From contig CAMNRH010000009.1 of NCBI GenBank assembly GCA_946552115.1, forward strand, positions 18,626-82,625: DNA of 64,000 nt, read 5' to 3'. The DNA comes from an uncultured Lachnospiraceae bacterium (GTDB lineage: Bacteria; Bacillota; Clostridia; Lachnospirales; Lachnospiraceae). The notes under the pieces were generated by a model that saw only the letters and a list, made by a program, of their open reading frames with translations, made no database searches and was not told where the DNA came from. Positions 849 to 46,071 of the stretch are shown in pieces. The stretch's first letter is position 1; the number at the start of each line of letters is the position of its first letter. The position numbers and the translations under genes are program-made.

Positions 849-1415
849 TTACTCCCATTCCACATTTTCTTTTATTATTTTTGCTGGAACTCCCGCAGCC
901 ATGCATCCTGGCGGTATATCTTTTGTCACCACGCTTCCGGCTGCAATAACACTGCCCTCGCCAATCGTCACTCCCTTTAGCACAGTTACCCTTGTCCCAA
1001 TCCAGACATGATCTCCAATGATAACCGGACTGCTTATACTTTTTCCGTTAATCTTATGGAAATCTGAATCCATAACCGTAAAGTCATGTGATATTGCACA
1101 CTTATTGCCAATCCGGATTTCTTTCCGGCATCTGATTTTGCAATCGCTGTTTATATAACTGTCTCTGCCTAATACAAGCGTTGCTCCCTGAAATAAAATA
1201 ATATCTGCCCCGTAATAAAATGAGAAATTTCCCTCTACCTCTAAAACGCTCCCTTTATCCATACGCAATATACTTGAACGCCCATTTTCTATCATTCTGT
1301 TTTCGCCTAAAACGAATGTTCCATTCAAATAAATGGCGGCACATTTATCCATCAAAATATAGTCTTCTACTGTTTTGTTTATTTTTGCATATGGGTTCAA
1401 TTTCACAACTTCCAT
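849..1415 (-). CDS. hexapeptide-repeat (left-handed beta-helix) O-acetyltransferase
   Basis: 188 aa with hexapeptide repeats, e.g. [48 protein letters not shown]. Its stop lies 7 nt before the next start, which suggests an operon. Confidence 0.8.
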
Positions 1416-1444
1416 ATTACCATTCCTTATAAACTTACAAACCC

Positions 1445-1463
1445 GATAGCGTTTTACGCTATC
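1445..1463 (-). terminator. hairpin GATAGCG-N5-CGCTATC downstream of the secreted-protein gene
   Basis: Perfect 7-bp stem. On the minus strand it is followed by GGGTTTGTAAGTTTA, which is moderately T-rich. Confidence 0.45.
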
Positions 1464-1480
1464 GAGTCTGTATATCGCTT

Positions 1481-2497
1481 TTACTGTATTGCAAGCTCTT
1501 CTGTCACACCTGTGCTTAATGTTACCTGCAACTTTCCGCCTACATTTCCGCCAAGCATATCCGCATTAAAAGAAAGCGTTCCATCTTTAAAAGTATACTG
1601 AGTTGTTAGTGTAACTTCCCCGCCATTGGCCTTAATCATCTTTACGCCAGTAACGTTCGCGCCGGTTACTGTAACGCTGTTTGACGTCTTGCTGACAGCC
1701 GCAGCTGACAACGCAGAATCTCTATGCTCCGCATAGCTCCAGGTAACCTTGATTGCCGGGAAGTCCAGATCATCTCCCCATTTCGCATTCTTATTCAGCG
1801 CGCCTGTCATGTTAAATGAACATTCATTCCAATCTGTCAGGTCGGCCTCGTCTTTCAATGTATATTGATATCCGTCTGCCTCTGTATATCCCGCTTCATA
1901 ATTACCAGGTATGCCCGCAACCGTCGTCTTAATCGTAGCCGCGCCTGTGCCGGTAAGAGCCGCTGTCTTAGGATTTGAAGCCGCGCCGTCCGTAATCGCC
2001 AGATACAGTTTATTATCTTTATCCGCCGCGTCAAAGGTTGCGCTCTCCGCATATTTGATCGTGCTGTCCCCAGCTGCTTTCTGTTCCAGCTTCACTGTTA
2101 CGTCAATGTCCTGAGCGTTCTCATTTGTCAATGACAGCGCTGTGCTGTCTGCCGTATAGGTTTTTGCTCCGTCATCTGCCGTACTTGTCAGGAAGAAAAC
2201 GCCTGTCGTACCGATAAATGTGGAATTCGCGTATTTTTCGCCGCTTGTCGCTGCGATCAGTCCGTTCGGATCCGCAATATAGTCATAGGTTCCCTCCGGG
2301 ATTGTCGGAAGTGTTACGGAAAGCGTAGGATACTTCATCTCTCCGCCCTCATAGGTTCCTTCGCCTTCCCCAACTCCCGCTGTGGGCGCCGGATCTGTTC
2401 CTTCATCGCCTGTTTCTGATGCAAATACTGTCATCGTGCTTCCAATTACCATTACAGCAGTCAATGAAAGCGCCACAAATTTCTTATAATTTTTCAT
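1481..2497 (-). CDS. secreted protein of unknown function (signal peptide, Thr/Gly/Ala-rich, beta-rich)
   Basis: 338 aa. The N-terminus [30 protein letters not shown] looks like a Sec signal peptide. I recognise no catalytic motif. Confidence 0.65.
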
Positions 2498-2533
2498 TCT
2501 GCCAATTCCTCCTCTTTTTTCATTTAAATGGAA

Positions 2534-3052
2534 TTACCCCTCAACTACTATTTCCAGGGTTACCCTCAAAGTGCTGAGCGTGTTCTGTTCCTCGTCTACC
2601 AGATGATAAATCACAACACAGTTATATGTACCTGCATCCAGCGGTTTTTCCAGTGCAATCTCCTCCAGACGCCCTCCCCTTGGTATTACCGGGGATTTAT
2701 ATAATACATTGTCTTCGTCGCCTTCCAGAACGATATCAAAATAGACGTCGTTCGTATTTTTCTCAACATTTTCCACCACCGCATCGTAAGATACAGCCTT
2801 TCCTGTTTCAAAATGCCATACAGGATTCATCGTAACGGTATAATATCCTGCCTCCTTTGCGTCATCCAGCTCCTCCAGCACACTCTCCACATTCTCAGGA
2901 GTAACGACGACATTGCGCCGTTCCTTTTCCGGCTCCGCATCCCGTGATAACAGAAGATAAATAATAATCCCAATTAATATTACAAGAATTGCAATACCAA
3001 TCCCTATTATAAAACCTCCCTTTCTTGTTTTTTTCTGCTTCTGCTTTCCCAT
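2534..3052 (-). CDS. N-terminally membrane-anchored protein of unknown function
   Basis: The ORF track gives 2534..3061. The ATG at 3052 is better spaced from the AGGAGG. The protein has a basic N-terminus, one TM helix (FIIGIGIAILVILIGIIIYLLL) and then a roughly 130-aa extracytoplasmic domain. Confidence 0.6.
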   Translation of the reverse strand: MGKQKQKKTRKGGFIIGIGIAILVILIGIIIYLLLSRDAEPEKERRNVVVTPENVESVLEELDDAKEAGYYTVTMNPVWHFETGKAVSYDAVVENVEKNTNDVYFDIVLEGDEDNVLYKSPVIPRGGRLEEIALEKPLDAGTYNCVVIYHLVDEEQNTLSTLRVTLEIVVEG

Positions 3053-3186
3053 TACGTCCATCCTCCTGAAAATTCTTTATATTCATTCCTGCAGTCTCCT
3101 GCCGAAACAAATACCTGCCGCCAAATTTTTAGCAGTTACTAAATGATGTATTCATGCAGCATTTCCTTTTAAATAAAATACATTGG

Positions 3187-3457
3187 TCATCCGTATTCCG
3201 GGATGATGCGGCCTTTCAGGACGCTTCGCTCCCCGTTACGTCATGATCTATCCATGTTCACGGGGTCCTGGCCTACCCAATACGCAGATTACGCATGATC
3301 TCTCACGCCCTCTCTGCCTTCTAATGCCGTTCTTTCTTTTTATATATGGCAGACACGCTGTAACGCTGCGCCCGCCTTATCATGAATCTTCCGTCTGGTC
3401 CTCTCCGGTAAAACCCCGGCTTTTTGCCGCGGTTTATCCAGACGGCTGTTCTTATGA
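3187..3457 (-). ncRNA. candidate omega-RNA (TnpB-associated guide RNA scaffold); boundaries uncertain
   Basis: Non-coding 3' flank of the TnpB-like gene, dense in hairpins on the minus strand. These are 3391-3398/3438-3445 (8 bp, enclosing the 3411-3435 hairpin), 3231-3236/3260-3265, 3208-3213/3219-3224 and 3187-3192/3201-3206. No credible ORF is present. The position matches where TnpB omega-RNAs are encoded. Confidence 0.4.
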
Positions 3458-4777
3458 TTATGATTGACAGAGGGCTCCATCCCCCTGCCCCCGCCTCATT
3501 ACATTGCGGGCGGTATTTTTTTTCTCCTCTGTCTCATAGCCGCATGAAGAACAAAAAAATCTGTTGTTCTGTTTTTCTCCCGCTGCTCCGCAGCGGCTGC
3601 ACTCGCTGCTGATATCCTTTCCCAGAACCTCCACAAGCCTTACCGACTGTTCTTTGCACTTCTGTGCAAGCCTCTTCCGAATATACCCTCTCTGCCACTG
3701 GGAAAGAGAATAATTAATCCTCTTATTCTTTCCTCCCCCCTGGGGCTTCGGCAGCTTTACAATATAGACAGTTCCCGGCTTTTCTTCCCGGAGAAAACGG
3801 TTCAGCTCCTGATTGATATAACCGTGCAGCCTTTCTTTCATACGCCGTTTCTTCGCATAATATTTCTTCCGTCCCGGATTTTCTTTCTTATTGCGGCTGT
3901 AGCTTTCCGCCTGCAGGCGAATCCACTCGGAATATCTGGTCTGGTAATCCCCCAGCTCCTCGCCGTAACGCCGTCCCTCATCGGTAGTCAGCATCGTGTA
4001 AAAACCAACCGCCACTCCCACCCGCTTCCGGTAATCCTCATGGCAGTGCACGGAAACTCTTACAGGAGCCTTTATTTCTATGCGGTTTTCCTCCGGATAC
4101 AGCTTCACATACAATTGAGCGCTGTACTGGTTACTATCCGTAAGCGGAATAAAAATCCGTTTCCTCTTTTCCTTTATGGAGATATAAATTCCATGGTCTG
4201 CATAACGATACGCCCGCTCCGCTATCGCAAAGCCGTCCGCCTTATCTGTATGGAGCTTCACATGATATTTTCTCACCTGTCTGCACAGATAACGGGACAT
4301 CTTTTCCGTATCTACTTTCTGCGCCAGCTCCTCATACTGTTTCTGAATTCTCGCGGTCAGTTCTATCGGTTTTTGGTTCAACGCCGCCTCAAACGCATTA
4401 TTTACTTTCAGCAGAAACCGTAAATAGTGCTTTTCCTTCTCCGTAAGAGTCTCGTTTTTACTGAGAAGCATTGTCAGCTTCGTCTTAGTCCTTGTCCATT
4501 GGCTCTTAATCTCGCCCAGTGCATCAAATATCGCAAGATAAAAATACACGGACGGCAAACCCAGCGTTTCCCGGAAACCGCTCTCTGTCATCTCATTTTG
4601 AACCGTATATCCCGGGTACAGCTTAGAAAGACCGGAAATACCTCCAAACCGGTTGTATACATAATTCTTTACCGTTTGGTAATCCTTTGCAATCTCCAGA
4701 AGCTTCTGCATATCTTCCTCTGGCACCGGCTTTTTATTATATTGATGAACGGTTTTACACACTCTGTCCGGAGACAT
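3458..4777 (-). CDS. TnpB-family (IS200/IS605 OrfB-like) protein with a substituted RuvC triad; candidate nuclease-dead RNA-guided DNA-binding protein (TldR-like)
   Basis: 439 aa from the ATG at 4777 (RBS AGAGGAAAGG). The three TnpB motifs are present in the canonical order. RuvC-I is RVGVAVGFYTMLTTDEG, with Ala (GCG, 4010-4012) where Asp is expected. RuvC-II is VYIVKLPKPQGGGKNKRINYSLSQWQRGYI, with Lys (AAG, 3755-3757) where Glu is expected. The zinc ribbon is CSRCG..FFCSSCG. RuvC-III is EEKKNTARNVMRRG, with Lys (AAA, 3521-3523) where Asp is expected. Confidence 0.75.
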   Translation of the reverse strand: MSPDRVCKTVHQYNKKPVPEEDMQKLLEIAKDYQTVKNYVYNRFGGISGLSKLYPGYTVQNEMTESGFRETLGLPSVYFYLAIFDALGEIKSQWTRTKTKLTMLLSKNETLTEKEKHYLRFLLKVNNAFEAALNQKPIELTARIQKQYEELAQKVDTEKMSRYLCRQVRKYHVKLHTDKADGFAIAERAYRYADHGIYISIKEKRKRIFIPLTDSNQYSAQLYVKLYPEENRIEIKAPVRVSVHCHEDYRKRVGVAVGFYTMLTTDEGRRYGEELGDYQTRYSEWIRLQAESYSRNKKENPGRKKYYAKKRRMKERLHGYINQELNRFLREEKPGTVYIVKLPKPQGGGKNKRINYSLSQWQRGYIRKRLAQKCKEQSVRLVEVLGKDISSECSRCGAAGEKQNNRFFCSSCGYETEEKKNTARNVMRRGQGDGALCQS

Positions 4778-4856: not shown

Positions 4857-4885
4857 ATTATTGATATCCAGAATTTTTCAGTCAA
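4857..4885 (-). promoter_or_regulatory. predicted sigma-A promoter of the TnpB-like gene (TTGACT-17-AATAAT)
   Basis: Minus strand: TTGACT (4885-4880), a 17-nt spacer, then AATAAT (4862-4857). Confidence 0.4.
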
Positions 4886-4971
4886 ATTAAATAAAAAAAG
4901 GGATTAATTTTATTGACGAATGGTCGATAATATAATAGAATAATTAAGAATTTGTGTTAAAGATACGCTTT

Positions 4972-4991
4972 CCAAAAACTACACTTTTTGG
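4972..4991. repeat. inverted-repeat arm L (CCAAAAACTACACTTTTTGG)
   Basis: Perfect 20-nt reverse complement of 4835..4854. It lies about 90 nt upstream of the predicted -35. Confidence 0.85.
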
Positions 4992-5136: not shown

Positions 5137-7707
5137 CTAGCATGTAGCGCCTCCGACTACATTCTTTTTTAATATCTCTTTTTTATCAATCTTGCTGTTT
5201 AAAAGCTTATCCTGCACATAGTCAAAGCCCAGCCGTGATATCGTATCTGCGAGACGCTCTCCGGACAGGCCCTCGTTACGGAAGAACAAAATGGTACGTT
5301 CAACCACATCCACAACCTCCTCTTCCGAGGTAAAGATTTTATCCAGCATACGGCCTTCCGCCACTTTTTTACCCCAGCGTCCGCCGATGTATACCCGGTA
5401 TCCGACAACAGACTCTTCAACTGCGCCGAACGGACATTTTGCAATACAGCATCCGCAGTGATTGCACGCCTTTTCGTCTATCACGATTTTACCGTCCTGC
5501 ATTCTCGCCACATGAATCGGACATGCGTTTTCTACCTGGCACTTCTTACAGCCCCGGCATTTGGAAGAATCAATTTCCGGCACCCGCTGACCGACGATTC
5601 CCAAATCATTCAGATTCGGCTTCACACAGTTATTCGGACAGCCGCCCACGGCAATCTTGAATTTATGCGGAAGTGAAACGTCATGATATCCTGTATAATA
5701 CAACTCGTGCAGCCTTTCCGAAAGCGCGAAAGTATCAATCAGTCCATACTGACAGGTGGTTCCCTTGCAGGAAACAACCGGACGGACTTTTGAGCCGGTT
5801 CCTCCGGTCTCTAATCCTGCCTCCTTAAGAAATTCCATAATCGGCTCTATATTATCATAAGGCACTCCCTGAATTTCCAGCGTCAGACGGGTCGTCATCG
5901 TCACCTCTCCTGAACCGAACTTTTCTGCTGCCTCTGCAATCCGCTGCTGCTCCTTTGCGGTAATCTTTCCGTTTCCTGTAATTACACGTACGTTGAAAAC
6001 ATCCTCATACCGCTTATCCTGAAGGCAGCCTAAACCTTTCACTCTCTTTATCTCCTCCGGGGAAAGCTTTTTTCCGTTCCGGGGCACTTTCACCTCGTTA
6101 AAAACTGCTCCTCCCTCTAACACAAGCGTATTTGTATAACCATATGCTTTCAGACGGTTCTGAAGAAAATACCCCCGTTTCCCTTTTGCACAGACAAGAA
6201 GCAGCTTCGCATCCTTTTCAAGCCCCTCGACAGGACCCGTTACCTCGGAGAGGTTAATCCAGCGTGCGCCGGGAAGCGCCGGAGCAGGCTGCACGTCCAG
6301 AATCTGATAGTCTTTTGCCGCTCCATTTACATACTCTGCCGGACTCATACTCTCCAGTTCTCCGTCCAGCTTATTTTCCAAAATATAGCATGCGCTGACA
6401 AAGGGGTGGATTGCCGTGGAAAACGGCGGCGCATAAGCATAATCCATTGTATCAAAATCATCGGCTGTCATACCCTGGGAAATTCCTGTCACCGCGATAT
6501 CCACCATCTTATCCACCGCTCCCGCGCCCAGCACCTGAATTCCCAATATCCGCCGGCTTTCCCTTTCTGCCGTAAGCTTAATATAGAAAGAGGACGCGCC
6601 CGGATAATAATGCGCCTTATCATCCAGAATACAGACAACCGAAAGGGTCTCATAACCCGCCGCCTTTGCCTGTTCCTCAGTAAGGCCTGTACGCCCGGCG
6701 TTAAGCTCAGGAAGAAGTCTTACGACGCCCGTACCCATACATCCGCCGTAGCCCTTATTTGCTCCGTACATTTTCTTTACCATCGCACGGGCTGAGAGAT
6801 TAGCCGTAGAACCCATCGCCGACCACTGAGGTTTATCTGTCAATACATTTTTTACCATCGCACAGTCGCCCGCCGCATAAATATCCGGAAGATTGGTCTG
6901 CATATTTTCATCCACTAAAACCGTGCCCTTGAACATCTCAAGACCGCTATCTGTCAGAAATTCCGTCGCCGGGCGCACGCCAATCGCCATAACGGCCACA
7001 TCCGCCGCAAAGCTTCCATTATCTGTCTGCACACTTTCTACATGCTCCGCTCCGTTTATCCCCGTAAGACTGGTTGCGGTCAGAATCCTCATTCCTGCTT
7101 TTTTCAGCTGACGCTTTGCGAAATCCGCCATTTCCCTGTCAAAGGCATTCGGCATAATCTGGGGCATAGCGTCAATAACTGTTACCTCCAATCCCTGCGC
7201 CATCAGGTTTTCCGCAACCTCCAGCCCGATAAAGCCCGCGCCGCATACAACTGCTCTTCTGCAATGCCTTTCTTCAATATATGCGCGAAGCTTTACCGCA
7301 TCCTCCGGCGTACGCACACAAAATACACCCGAAAGCTCTTTTCCCTCCACCGGCGGCACAAACGGAACCGCCCCCGTAGAAATAATCAGCTTATCATAGA
7401 TCTCTGTGAAAATTTCCCCGGAGGCTCTTTTTATTGTTACCTCCTTTTTCTCAGCATTTACGCCGACCGCCTCACAGCCGGTATAAACCGCCGCTCCTGT
7501 AAGCCCTGCATATTTCTCCGGAGTGTTTACAATTAAGCCCTCTCTCGTCGGAATATCCCCGCCGATATAATAAGGAAGACCACATCCCGCATAAGAAATA
7601 TCCTCTCCTTTCGTAAACACCTTTACCTCTGCTTTTCTGTCACATCGTTTTAATTTTGCCGCAGCCTTAGTTCCCGCTGCAACGCCGCCCAAAATCACGT
7701 ATTTCAT
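5137..7707 (-). CDS. fusion protein: CoA-disulfide reductase/NADH oxidase-like FAD oxidoreductase + rhodanese + sulfite/nitrite-reductase-like 4Fe-4S domain
   Basis: 856 aa. The N-terminus is MKYVILGGVAAGTKAA...YAGCGLPYYIGG (pyridine-nucleotide disulfide oxidoreductase). The middle section is rhodanese-like (LLLVCAKGKRGYF). The C-terminus reads GGCPNNCVKPNLNDLGI...CRGCKKC..CP...CNHCGCCIAKCP. Confidence 0.75.
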   Translation of the reverse strand: MKYVILGGVAAGTKAAAKLKRCDRKAEVKVFTKGEDISYAGCGLPYYIGGDIPTREGLIVNTPEKYAGLTGAAVYTGCEAVGVNAEKKEVTIKRASGEIFTEIYDKLIISTGAVPFVPPVEGKELSGVFCVRTPEDAVKLRAYIEERHCRRAVVCGAGFIGLEVAENLMAQGLEVTVIDAMPQIMPNAFDREMADFAKRQLKKAGMRILTATSLTGINGAEHVESVQTDNGSFAADVAVMAIGVRPATEFLTDSGLEMFKGTVLVDENMQTNLPDIYAAGDCAMVKNVLTDKPQWSAMGSTANLSARAMVKKMYGANKGYGGCMGTGVVRLLPELNAGRTGLTEEQAKAAGYETLSVVCILDDKAHYYPGASSFYIKLTAERESRRILGIQVLGAGAVDKMVDIAVTGISQGMTADDFDTMDYAYAPPFSTAIHPFVSACYILENKLDGELESMSPAEYVNGAAKDYQILDVQPAPALPGARWINLSEVTGPVEGLEKDAKLLLVCAKGKRGYFLQNRLKAYGYTNTLVLEGGAVFNEVKVPRNGKKLSPEEIKRVKGLGCLQDKRYEDVFNVRVITGNGKITAKEQQRIAEAAEKFGSGEVTMTTRLTLEIQGVPYDNIEPIMEFLKEAGLETGGTGSKVRPVVSCKGTTCQYGLIDTFALSERLHELYYTGYHDVSLPHKFKIAVGGCPNNCVKPNLNDLGIVGQRVPEIDSSKCRGCKKCQVENACPIHVARMQDGKIVIDEKACNHCGCCIAKCPFGAVEESVVGYRVYIGGRWGKKVAEGRMLDKIFTSEEEVVDVVERTILFFRNEGLSGERLADTISRLGFDYVQDKLLNSKIDKKEILKKNVVGGATC

Positions 7708-45459: not shown

Positions 45460-46071
45460 TTACACCCCCATCGTAATATCTTTCTGCGTCTTCGCCCTCC
45501 GATAAAAGGTTGTTCTTGCAAGATTGCACAGCCTTGCCGCCTCTTCTCCGGAAATTTCTTTATTCAGCCATCTTTCATAGACCTGCCTGAAATTATCCGG
45601 AGTCGGTGTCTGGGGACGGCCAAATTGTACGCCCCGCTGCATCGCCGCCTCAATTCCTTCCTTTTGTCTCTGCCGTATATTTTTATGCTCATTCTCCGCC
45701 ACAAATGACAGCACCTGGAGTACAATATCACTCAGAAAGGTTCCCATCAAATCCTTTCCGCGCCTCGTATCAAGAAGCGGCATGTCCAAAACCACAATAT
45801 CTACCTTTTTTTCCTTTGTCAGAATGCTCCACTGTTTTAAAATCTCATCATAGTTCCGCCCCAGACGGTCAATACTTTTTACATATAGTATATCCTCCGG
45901 TTTCATTTTTTTCAGTAAACGCAGATACATAGGACGGTTAAAATCTTTCCCGGACTGTCTGTCCACATAAATATTCTGCTTCGGTATCCGCACCTTATAA
46001 AGCGCCCTCATCTGCCTGTCCTCATTCTGCTCTCTCGTACTTACACGCACATAACCATAGATTGTTCCCAT
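45460..46071 (-). CDS. small serine recombinase (resolvase/invertase family)
   Basis: 203 aa. YGYVRVSTREQNEDRQ catalytic Ser motif and a C-terminal HTH (ARLCNLARTTFYRR). Confidence 0.85.
   Translation of the reverse strand: MGTIYGYVRVSTREQNEDRQMRALYKVRIPKQNIYVDRQSGKDFNRPMYLRLLKKMKPEDILYVKSIDRLGRNYDEILKQWSILTKEKKVDIVVLDMPLLDTRRGKDLMGTFLSDIVLQVLSFVAENEHKNIRQRQKEGIEAAMQRGVQFGRPQTPTPDNFRQVYERWLNKEISGEEAARLCNLARTTFYRRAKTQKDITMGV

Follow-up and report, generated by a model that had tools for sequence, protein, structure and literature searches.

We examined a 64,000-nucleotide stretch of DNA from an uncultured Lachnospiraceae bacterium (GenBank assembly GCA_946552115.1, contig CAMNRH010000009.1, positions 18,626 to 82,625 of the forward strand), hereafter the window, which carries a gene encoding a nuclease-dead TnpB-like protein. 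Unless a locus is named, coordinates are positions in the 64-kb window, and L001 and the like denote the homologous loci with which it was compared. The gene is an uninterrupted open reading frame (ORF) that begins with an ATG at 4777 having GAGAGGAAAGG just before it. A longer version starting at a TTG at 4885 is unlikely to be used because that position falls within an upstream inverted-repeat element. The gene is followed on its own strand by a structured RNA and by the first genes of a surface-glycan operon, and it is preceded by an invertible promoter (Table 1).

Table 1. Features of the window discussed in the text (strand as read in the window; a dot marks features given without a strand)
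Feature	Position	Strand	Description and basis
Nuclease-dead TnpB-like gene	3458..4777	-	439 aa plus stop; profile matches, model, column comparison, dN/dS
RNA element E1	3378..3458	-	About 80 nt; closing helix GAAC...GUUC; conserved in every locus
Linker	3331..3377	-	Optional hairpin (3377-3348), then A-rich ATATATAAAAAG; alignments of loci
RNA element E2	3182..3330	-	149 nt; ACGGCAUUAGAAGGCAG...GUAUUGGGUAGGCCAGGACC...GGAGCGAAGCG...GAUGACCAAU; scaffold 3' end; compensatory changes in helices 6-12
Tail GUAUUUUAUUUAAAAGG	3165..3181	-	Candidate short guide, GTATT class; directly after the scaffold, where a TnpB guide would be
Invertible segment	4858..4968	.	Promoter TTGACG-N17-TAGAAT at 4913-4941 (+); promoter scan, locus comparison
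Proximal inverted-repeat arm CCAAAAAGTGTAGTTTTTGGGAA	4835..4857	.	57 bp ahead of the ATG
Distal inverted-repeat arm TTTCCAAAAACTACACTTTTTGG	4969..4991	.	23 nt; 96% complementary pair
Start of the cargo operon	849..3061	-	Membrane protein, 175 aa (2534-3061); secreted protein, 338 aa (1481-2497); hexapeptide acyltransferase (849-1415)
Serine recombinase gene	45460..46071	-	203 aa; candidate invertase; Pfam Resolvase, E 1e-27

The window protein matched the Pfam family Cas12f1-like_TNB (E 5e-8) and the NCBIfam family guided_TnpB (E 7.6e-14), the latter with 51.8 bits, which is below the curated cut-off of 100. An AlphaFold model built on a 57-sequence alignment that included active relatives had a predicted local distance difference test score (pLDDT) of 86.5 and a predicted template modeling score (pTM) of 0.74. 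It superseded a model from a shallow 26-sequence alignment that was unusable (pLDDT 46). Foldseek matched the model with probability 1.0 to AsCas12f (8j12, E 7e-12) and ISDra2 TnpB (8h1j, E 2e-11, TM score 0.65) and, with the same probability, to the TnpB structures 8iaz (ISFba1) and 8exa, and a profile search of the protein also matched Cas12f and TnpB chains. As modeled, the protein has the TnpB/Cas12f fold with its WED, REC, RuvC, and zinc-ribbon parts. An earlier reading made from the letters of the sequence alone (hereafter the sequence-only reading) had called the gene a TnpB homologue with an intact frame of 439 codons, and both statements are borne out by these results.

The catalytic positions were taken column by column from an alignment of 16 sequences of the dead clade with 41 active relatives. 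In the dead clade the RuvC-I Asp position (A256 in the window protein) is Ala in 14 sequences and Ser in 2, whereas the RuvC-II Glu position (V340) and the RuvC-III Asp position (K419) are Val and Lys, respectively, in all 16. The active relatives have Asp at the first position and Glu at the second throughout, and at the third Asp in 35 and Asn in 6. A phmmer alignment to AsCas12f gave the same register, with V340 at the Glu position. Judged from these columns, the RuvC D-E-D triad is absent from the window protein and all three of its positions are non-acidic. The sequence-only reading had given the replacements as Ala/Lys/Lys. Its Ala and its RuvC-III Lys stand, but its RuvC-II Lys is K341, the residue one past the Glu position, and thus the triad reads Ala/Val/Lys. 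Its broader point that no acidic residue is left at the catalytic positions holds despite this correction of register, as does its remark that the CxxC..CxxC zinc ribbon is conserved, these cysteines being invariant. More distant dead clades likewise lack the RuvC triad.

The ratio of nonsynonymous to synonymous substitution rates (dN/dS) among paralogues was 0.05-0.12 with a median of 0.07, indicating strong purifying selection, and the gene had a full-length uninterrupted match in all 94 loci with close relatives (L001-L094). A single copy is present within the window. Elsewhere the relatives are diverged paralogues that share 64-81% amino acid identity, with at least four in Dorea sp. 5-2, at least four in Sporofaciens musculi and five in isolate B50_50_CF_H. 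The fixed non-acidic residues, the low dN/dS and the diverged paralogues agree with the earlier suggestion of a maintained variant rather than a decaying pseudogene. No tnpA was found beside the gene in the window, as the sequence-only reading had noted, or in the approximately 100 loci examined. The checks which that reading had proposed on relatives showed that both the substitutions (16-sequence dead clade) and the synteny (about 100 loci) are shared.

The family is broadly distributed. A first search for homologues gave 1727 proteins; the 120 best of these were 69-100% identical to the window protein and came from Lachnospiraceae such as Dorea and Sporofaciens. Scanning one genome per species gave 359 loci, and a profile search of 1.8 billion representatives gave 1920 relatives. 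In the latter search the relatives down to E about 1e-69 all lacked the triad, and those from E about 5e-67 carried the motifs GxDKG / ExL / DADxNA. Distant family members extend to other Clostridia and to Chitinispirillia. Among active relatives, the nearest are nucleases from Clostridium botulinum and its allies that are annotated as RNA-guided TnpB, and one active relative is encoded immediately after a MerR-HTH/Resolvase TnpA, as in IS607 elements. As the nearest active relatives are of IS607 type, we infer that the dead family is an old offshoot of the IS607-type TnpBs.

A conserved RNA element of roughly 280 nt extends from the stop codon (3458) to 3182. E1 begins at the last base of the stop codon, and its helices 1-5 show compensatory changes. 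In the window the RNA profile (nhmmer) matched 3459-3171 with E 3e-58. RNAalifold predicted 53 pairs; 95% of the alignment cells were paired and 33 pairs had a compensatory change, compared with 16.2+-2.3 in shuffled alignments (none of 500 reached the observed value) and 7-15 in controls in which the partner was slid. A candidate pseudoknot, AUUGG:CCAAU, becomes ACUCG:CGAGU in L103 and UUGA:UCAA in L091. By nhmmer exactly one copy of the RNA follows each copy of the gene, and none was found elsewhere in the flanks or the window. Covariance model R1, from which the distant-clade RNAs were excluded since the alignment containing them misaligned the 3' halves, was matched downstream of the dead genes in distant clades (L105, E 3e-20; L106, E 4e-15; L103, E 1e-9; L100, E 0.05), and the RNA core is retained beside dead homologues having just 34-56% identity to the window protein. 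Rfam gave nothing meaningful for the whole window (gathering search) or for 2950-3560 (E-value search), and no matches for four related loci. These data indicate a cognate structured RNA following the 3' end of the ORF, as in TnpB.

The 3' flanks of active IS607-type relatives have the motifs CUUUACCGCAAGGAAG, ACCAAGAC, and GAGCGAAUCAUCC..GAUGAU in common with this RNA. When R1 was run on those flanks it gave weak matches in three lineages (E 1.1, 4.4, and 6.4) at the right place and on the right strand, and nhmmer with the RNA profile gave no match in the active TnpB loci. The shared motifs and placement suggest that the RNA descends from an omegaRNA scaffold, to which the dead protein would presumably still bind. 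An early impression of a group I intron in the active C. botulinum locus L095 was dropped when Rfam did not confirm it.

Several other observations were made on the RNA. The linker hairpin occurs only in some loci, and a linker motif TGnTATAAA (window 3336-3347) is kept in most loci with or without that optional hairpin. From its sequence it might be an extended -10 box, in which case E2 and the operon might start at an internal promoter. The variable loop of E2 contains tandem arrays in L040 (9557-9756, a 57-nt unit in 3.5 copies with 98% match) and also in L023, L025, and L028. Each unit of the L040 array has two hairpin-forming halves, and copy number varies between loci. In L076 and L086 a second copy of the scaffold terminus GACCAAT lies 20-30 nt farther downstream, which suggests a local duplication or recombination at the junction of scaffold and tail.

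Upstream of the gene the two inverted-repeat arms enclose 111 bp. Their 20-nt core has just these two occurrences in the window (none expected), and nearly every homologous locus contains equivalent repeats, whose core is CGAAAAAGTGTACTTTTTCG and whose arms are separated by 100-120 bp. The conserved inner promoter TTGAC(G/T)-N17-TAGAAT points away from the gene in 43 loci, including that of the window, and toward it in 7. The window locus is therefore OFF as assembled. Most loci are OFF, and among those sampled a genome has at most one or two ON loci. A promoter-like TTGACT-N17-AATAAT that faces the gene within the invertible segment of the window is not conserved elsewhere, and the conserved promoter was preferred. 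Inverted repeats and a promoter ahead of surface-glycan genes are the marks of an invertible promoter (inverton), and inversion was observed directly in two matched pairs of loci. In L034 and L037, near-identical loci of two genomes, the inner segments are identical (107/110) only as reverse complements. L106 and L107 are one locus from two samples and encode a protein 56% identical to that of the window. Their 1428-bp segment (5477-6954 in these loci) matches at 1428/1428 positions as the reverse complement between flanks that are identical at 277/277 and 1420/1420 positions. This segment is bounded by 25-bp sites, TTCGCAGATTT-nnn-AAATCTGCGAA, and contains a tyrosine recombinase gene plus a promoter directed at the dead tnpB in one of the two orientations, a Hin-like arrangement.

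The serine recombinase encoded about 40 kb from the switch in the window is a candidate for the invertase. It is 72% identical to a resolvase encoded 250-1000 bp upstream of the dead tnpB in related loci (L012/L020, L023, L031, L036, L047, L050, L059, L071, L074, and L075), and this resemblance is what would tie it to the promoter switch. Tyrosine recombinase genes are adjacent in L053, L060, L103, L104, and L106. Many metagenome contigs stop 50-700 bp upstream of the gene, as would be expected if mixed promoter orientations break assemblies. Inverted duplications of 95-286 nt abut the recombination sites upstream of the gene in L046, L054, L086, and L094, and these are probably assembly artifacts of mixed orientations. 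In the invertible promoter the spacer that separates the -35 and -10 boxes has a conserved sequence (T/G)(T/C)CGATAAT, and TTAA precedes this by 15 nt, a combination that we take to resemble a promoter of the sigma-D/FliA type (TAAA-N15-GCCGATAA). It may be a dual promoter or a regulator-binding site.

The gene is not the orphan among ordinary chromosomal genes that the sequence-only reading had described. That reading overlooked that it is the first gene of a surface-glycan locus behind an invertible promoter. In every one of the approximately 100 loci the gene reads in the same direction as a mosaic cell-surface glycan cluster and lies at the 5' end of that cluster, and the glycan context is also found at homologues 34-56% identical to the window protein. 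The window operon runs past the window edge with FrhB-like, epimerase, and family 2 glycosyltransferase (GT2) genes, and L001 has the same cargo. Elsewhere the cargo includes DegT, GT2, UDP-galactopyranose mutase (GLF), DUF4422, LicD, and IspD/TarI genes as well as CTP-transferase/GDPD/Glyphos_transf, NeuB, polysialyltransferase, and secreted proteins without a Pfam match. No csrA or flagellin gene was found in L001-L108 or the window by tblastn with CsrA and flagellin queries, and the Pfam lists of neighboring genes contained no opp genes. The first cargo genes usually lack a Pfam match (2534-3061 and 1481-2497 in the window; clusters C0, C2, C9, C14, and C16). They encode either a single-pass membrane protein of about 176 aa (31 loci) or an Ala/Thr-rich secreted protein of 340-460 aa, and these proteins may be variable surface antigens or glycosylation substrates.

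Immediately past the scaffold all loci have a tail of the form RTRYYTTATTWAA (after CCAAU: RURYYUUAUUWAA), beyond which conservation ends. In other genomes 13-14-nt matches to a tail occur at sites flanked by TWTAT (L031, L032, L017, and L109). In 1.12 Mb of sequence TWTAT followed by RTRYYTTATT was found at 24 sites on the gene strand and at none on the other strand, and 23 of the 24 lie within 1.6 kb past the stop codon of the gene, compared with 0.015 in shuffled sequences. These sites share the motif family of the tail but have another 5' flank, (A)AAGT(A/T)TAT. A site was identical to the tail of its own locus in 0 of 25 cases (2.7 expected, P about 0.05) and to that of a different locus of its genome in 8 of 16 cases (4.6 expected, P about 0.05). 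In Sporofaciens musculi these matches form a chain: the L040 tail matches sites in L051 and L058 (12-13 nt) and the tail of L051 and L058 matches a site in L028 (13 nt). Targeting across loci by the tail is thus marginally supported by these sequence matches.

TWTAT would be the target-adjacent motif (TAM) of such sites. The scaffold end CCAAT and the site flank TWTAT have their last two bases in common, and in the IS607-type CboTnpB the scaffold end UCGG and the TAM TGGG share bases in a comparable manner (10.1101/2023.11.20.567912). The sites are oriented with the TAM toward the promoter, an orientation reported to be effective for TldR roadblocks (10.1101/2023.11.30.569447). Because tail variants are few and recur within a genome, tails would specify classes of loci rather than single loci. 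Tail-like sites flanked by TWTAT were also seen between the stop codon and E1 in L031 (+22), L055 (+25), L109 (+32), and L004 (about +10).

We propose that a domesticated IS607-type dead TnpB of the TldR kind and its RNA form a leader module of phase-variable glycan loci that silences rival loci. A site-specific recombinase (the serine enzyme as candidate in the window, serine or tyrosine enzymes in related loci) would flip the 111-bp promoter segment, and in the ON orientation the promoter would drive joint transcription of the dead tnpB, the RNA, and the glycan genes. The dead protein would bind the RNA scaffold, and the 10-16 nt past the scaffold end (...CCAAU) would serve as a short guide. 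The complex could then bind TWTAT-flanked matches on the coding strand, ahead of the biosynthetic genes of other paralogous loci, where it would block RNA polymerase. An ON locus would thereby silence its competitors, giving hierarchical, one-at-a-time expression with the logic of Salmonella FljA, Bacteroides UpxZ, and the phage fliC-TldR. As a full chain, read from sequence, this proposal is tentative, and we would place it somewhat short of an even chance. The broader picture drawn from it is more doubtful: an RNA-programmed hierarchy among the phase-variable glycan loci of gut Lachnospiraceae and related Clostridia, with a multi-paralogue TldR network built into DNA-inversion switches.

A number of observations weigh against the proposal. 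The 64-kb window has no candidate target: its tail has no match of 12 nt or longer elsewhere in it, only chance 10-11-mers. In addition, two loci seen in strain JLR.KK001 do not match each other's sites. A TWTAT site is present in just about 30% of loci. The two statistics on guides and targets are each marginal (P about 0.05) and come from an incomplete set of loci, 80 of 359 having been kept, and tail variants are few (four binary positions plus TTATT), one tail recurring in several loci of a genome. The RNA resembles active omegaRNAs only weakly (E 1-6). For the copy in the window no inversion was seen, L001-L003 all having the same orientation. Finally, the RNA is part of the operon's 5' untranslated region (UTR) and often lies 20-30 nt ahead of the first ribosome-binding site, a position that suits a role in cis equally well.

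Such a role in cis is the alternative that we take most seriously, although we consider it unlikely. The protein would bind its own nascent RNA and be needed for its own long glycan operon, by way of processive antitermination (like that of Bacteroides UpxY or the Bacillus EAR RNA), of processing or 5' stabilization, or of translational control of the first gene, with no targeting of DNA in trans. The RNA is always co-transcribed and lies between the gene and the operon, its end is 20-30 nt ahead of the first ribosome-binding site in many loci, the operons are long and mosaic, and the tail is semi-conserved rather than locus-specific. Moreover, TnpB is established to bind and process the 3' region of its own mRNA. 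Against this, the full TnpB architecture is kept, including WED and REC lobes that would be unnecessary for a purely RNA-binding role, and all characterized dead TnpBs act on DNA. A pure cis role also leaves unexplained the strand- and position-specific TWTAT sites, their tail-like repertoire of variants, and their avoidance of the tail of their own locus. Another alternative is feedback on the switch itself. Here the ribonucleoprotein would bias or lock promoter orientation, perhaps from binding sites close to the recombinase gene or to the sites of recombination. The module always lies beside an invertible promoter and often beside a recombinase gene, which in L106/L107 is inside the invertible segment. 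However, no tail-like motif was found on either strand within 600 bp upstream of the gene in about 78 loci, and the single 10-nt tail match in the invertible segment of the window (4896) is not conserved in other loci. We regard this feedback as improbable.

Only slightly less can be said for an independent RNA leader, such as a riboswitch-like sensor or an attenuator, whose neighboring protein would have some other role or be a tolerated relic. A U-rich stretch after the last hairpin/pseudoknot, the position in the 5' UTR, and the want of an Rfam family are what would be expected of such a leader. However, the RNA is one-to-one with the protein in about 100 loci and across clades at about 35% protein identity, was never seen without the gene in the DNA examined, starts at the stop codon like omegaRNAs, and has motifs in common with the flanks of active TnpBs, and the protein is under strong purifying selection. 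Together these make an unrelated leader quite improbable. The remaining alternative, a plain or decaying insertion sequence (IS) whose degenerate tnpB was left by transposition, might be read from the database names of relatives ("transposase") and from the many short metagenome contigs that carry the gene. Assembly breaks at the invertible segment account better for the short contigs. There is no adjoining tnpA and there are no identical copies, the paralogues being as diverged and as constrained as given above; every copy has its full length, non-acidic residues are fixed throughout the family, and the position before glycan operons is constant. A decaying IS is thus extremely improbable, in line with the sequence-only reading, which had set the gene apart from a plain IS.

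If the proposed silencing of rival loci is correct, it joins RNA-guided DNA binding to the DNA-inversion phase variation of surface glycans and would parallel Bacteroides UpxZ and Salmonella FljA with an RNA-guided system. Surface-glycan variation bears on immune recognition, phage resistance, and gut colonization, and how multiple phase-variable surface loci are coordinated in Firmicutes is poorly understood. This question is directly testable here because the regulator, the RNA, the putative sites, and the switch all have coordinates. The family is large, with 359 species-representative loci and about 1700-1900 protein-database matches, and it is found in cultivable mouse-gut commensals, with Dorea sp. 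5-2, Sporofaciens musculi, and Schaedlerella arabinosiphila among its cultivable carriers. It also yields an uncatalogued structured RNA family and a compact, naturally dead, putative DNA-binding scaffold with a possible A/T-rich TAM.

The known TldR clades are fliC-associated (Enterobacteriaceae prophages), oppF-associated (Enterococcus), and csrA-associated (gut Firmicutes). The original TldR study lists 506 dead TnpBs, the csrA clade included, and only the three clades just named have been characterized. A 2026 preprint states that the roles of most dead-TnpB/TldR lineages are unknown. The present family resembles TldRs in being a TnpB-derived protein with a ruined RuvC site, without a transposase or transposon ends, that is stably linked to non-transposon genes and has a conserved non-coding RNA immediately 3'. 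It resembles fliC-TldR in particular in its tie to a variable surface structure and in its "express mine, silence the other" setting. The dead triad, the purifying selection, the lack of an adjacent tnpA, and the covarying structured RNA after each copy support the TldR-like kind that had been suggested for the gene. The family would work like TldR in design: the structural features are present, and repression is its predicted action.

The differences from the known TldR clades begin with context. The family lacks fliC, csrA, and opp neighbors, and because neither csrA nor flagellin occurs in the loci searched it is set apart from the fliC, csrA, and oppF clades by its gene context. It instead heads glycan operons behind an invertible promoter and has several diverged paralogues per genome. 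Many TldRs are truncated in the C-terminal RuvC/zinc-ribbon region, whereas this family keeps that region in full with substitutions at all three catalytic positions, two of which are fixed (V and K). At about 280 nt, and more where there are insertions, its RNA scaffold is long, and the ancestry of the family is probably of IS607 type. The sequence-only reading had considered that a Clostridia lineage in this gene context would be new. The lineage is not new in itself because the csrA-associated clade in gut-commensal Firmicutes had already been published, but the glycan and inverton context is. A literature search found no description of a TnpB or TldR with invertible promoters, polysaccharide loci, or phase variation, and by comparison of contexts with the TldR clades a dead TnpB and its RNA between an invertible promoter and glycan genes is a new arrangement.

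Relative to the IS607-type TnpBs (such as CboTnpB of the Clostridium botulinum IStrons), which are the closest active relatives by profile search, the family has the same fold, an RNA encoded at and past the 3' end of the ORF, RNA motifs in common, and a scaffold end whose final two bases are also those of the putative TAM (CCAAT/TWTAT here, UCGG/TGGG there). It differs in having neither the catalytic triad nor a TnpA_S partner nor mobility, in an A/T-rich putative TAM where that of the IS607 example is G-rich, and in an RNA whose homology is weakly detectable.

The nearest functional parallels lie in other bacteria. The capsular loci of Bacteroides have promoters inverted by Mpi and the regulators UpxY and UpxZ as first genes, UpxZ giving hierarchical inhibition across loci. 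The resemblance is in the several polysaccharide loci per gut-commensal genome, each behind an invertible promoter, in a serine recombinase that may be encoded elsewhere, and in regulators rather than enzymes as the first genes. However, the Bacteroides regulators are unrelated proteins from another phylum, the NusG-like UpxY and UpxZ, which inhibits it, and they work at the level of transcription elongation without an RNA guide, whereas the regulator here is a TnpB derivative having an RNA partner. In the Salmonella Hin/hix switch (fljB-fljA) the invertible segment carries the promoter and the recombinase gene, as it does in L106/L107. FljA differs in being a small protein that acts on fliC mRNA without an RNA guide and in choosing between two alternatives only. 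In Salmonella as in the family described here, the promoter co-expresses a surface structure together with a regulator, which in this family would silence the alternatives.

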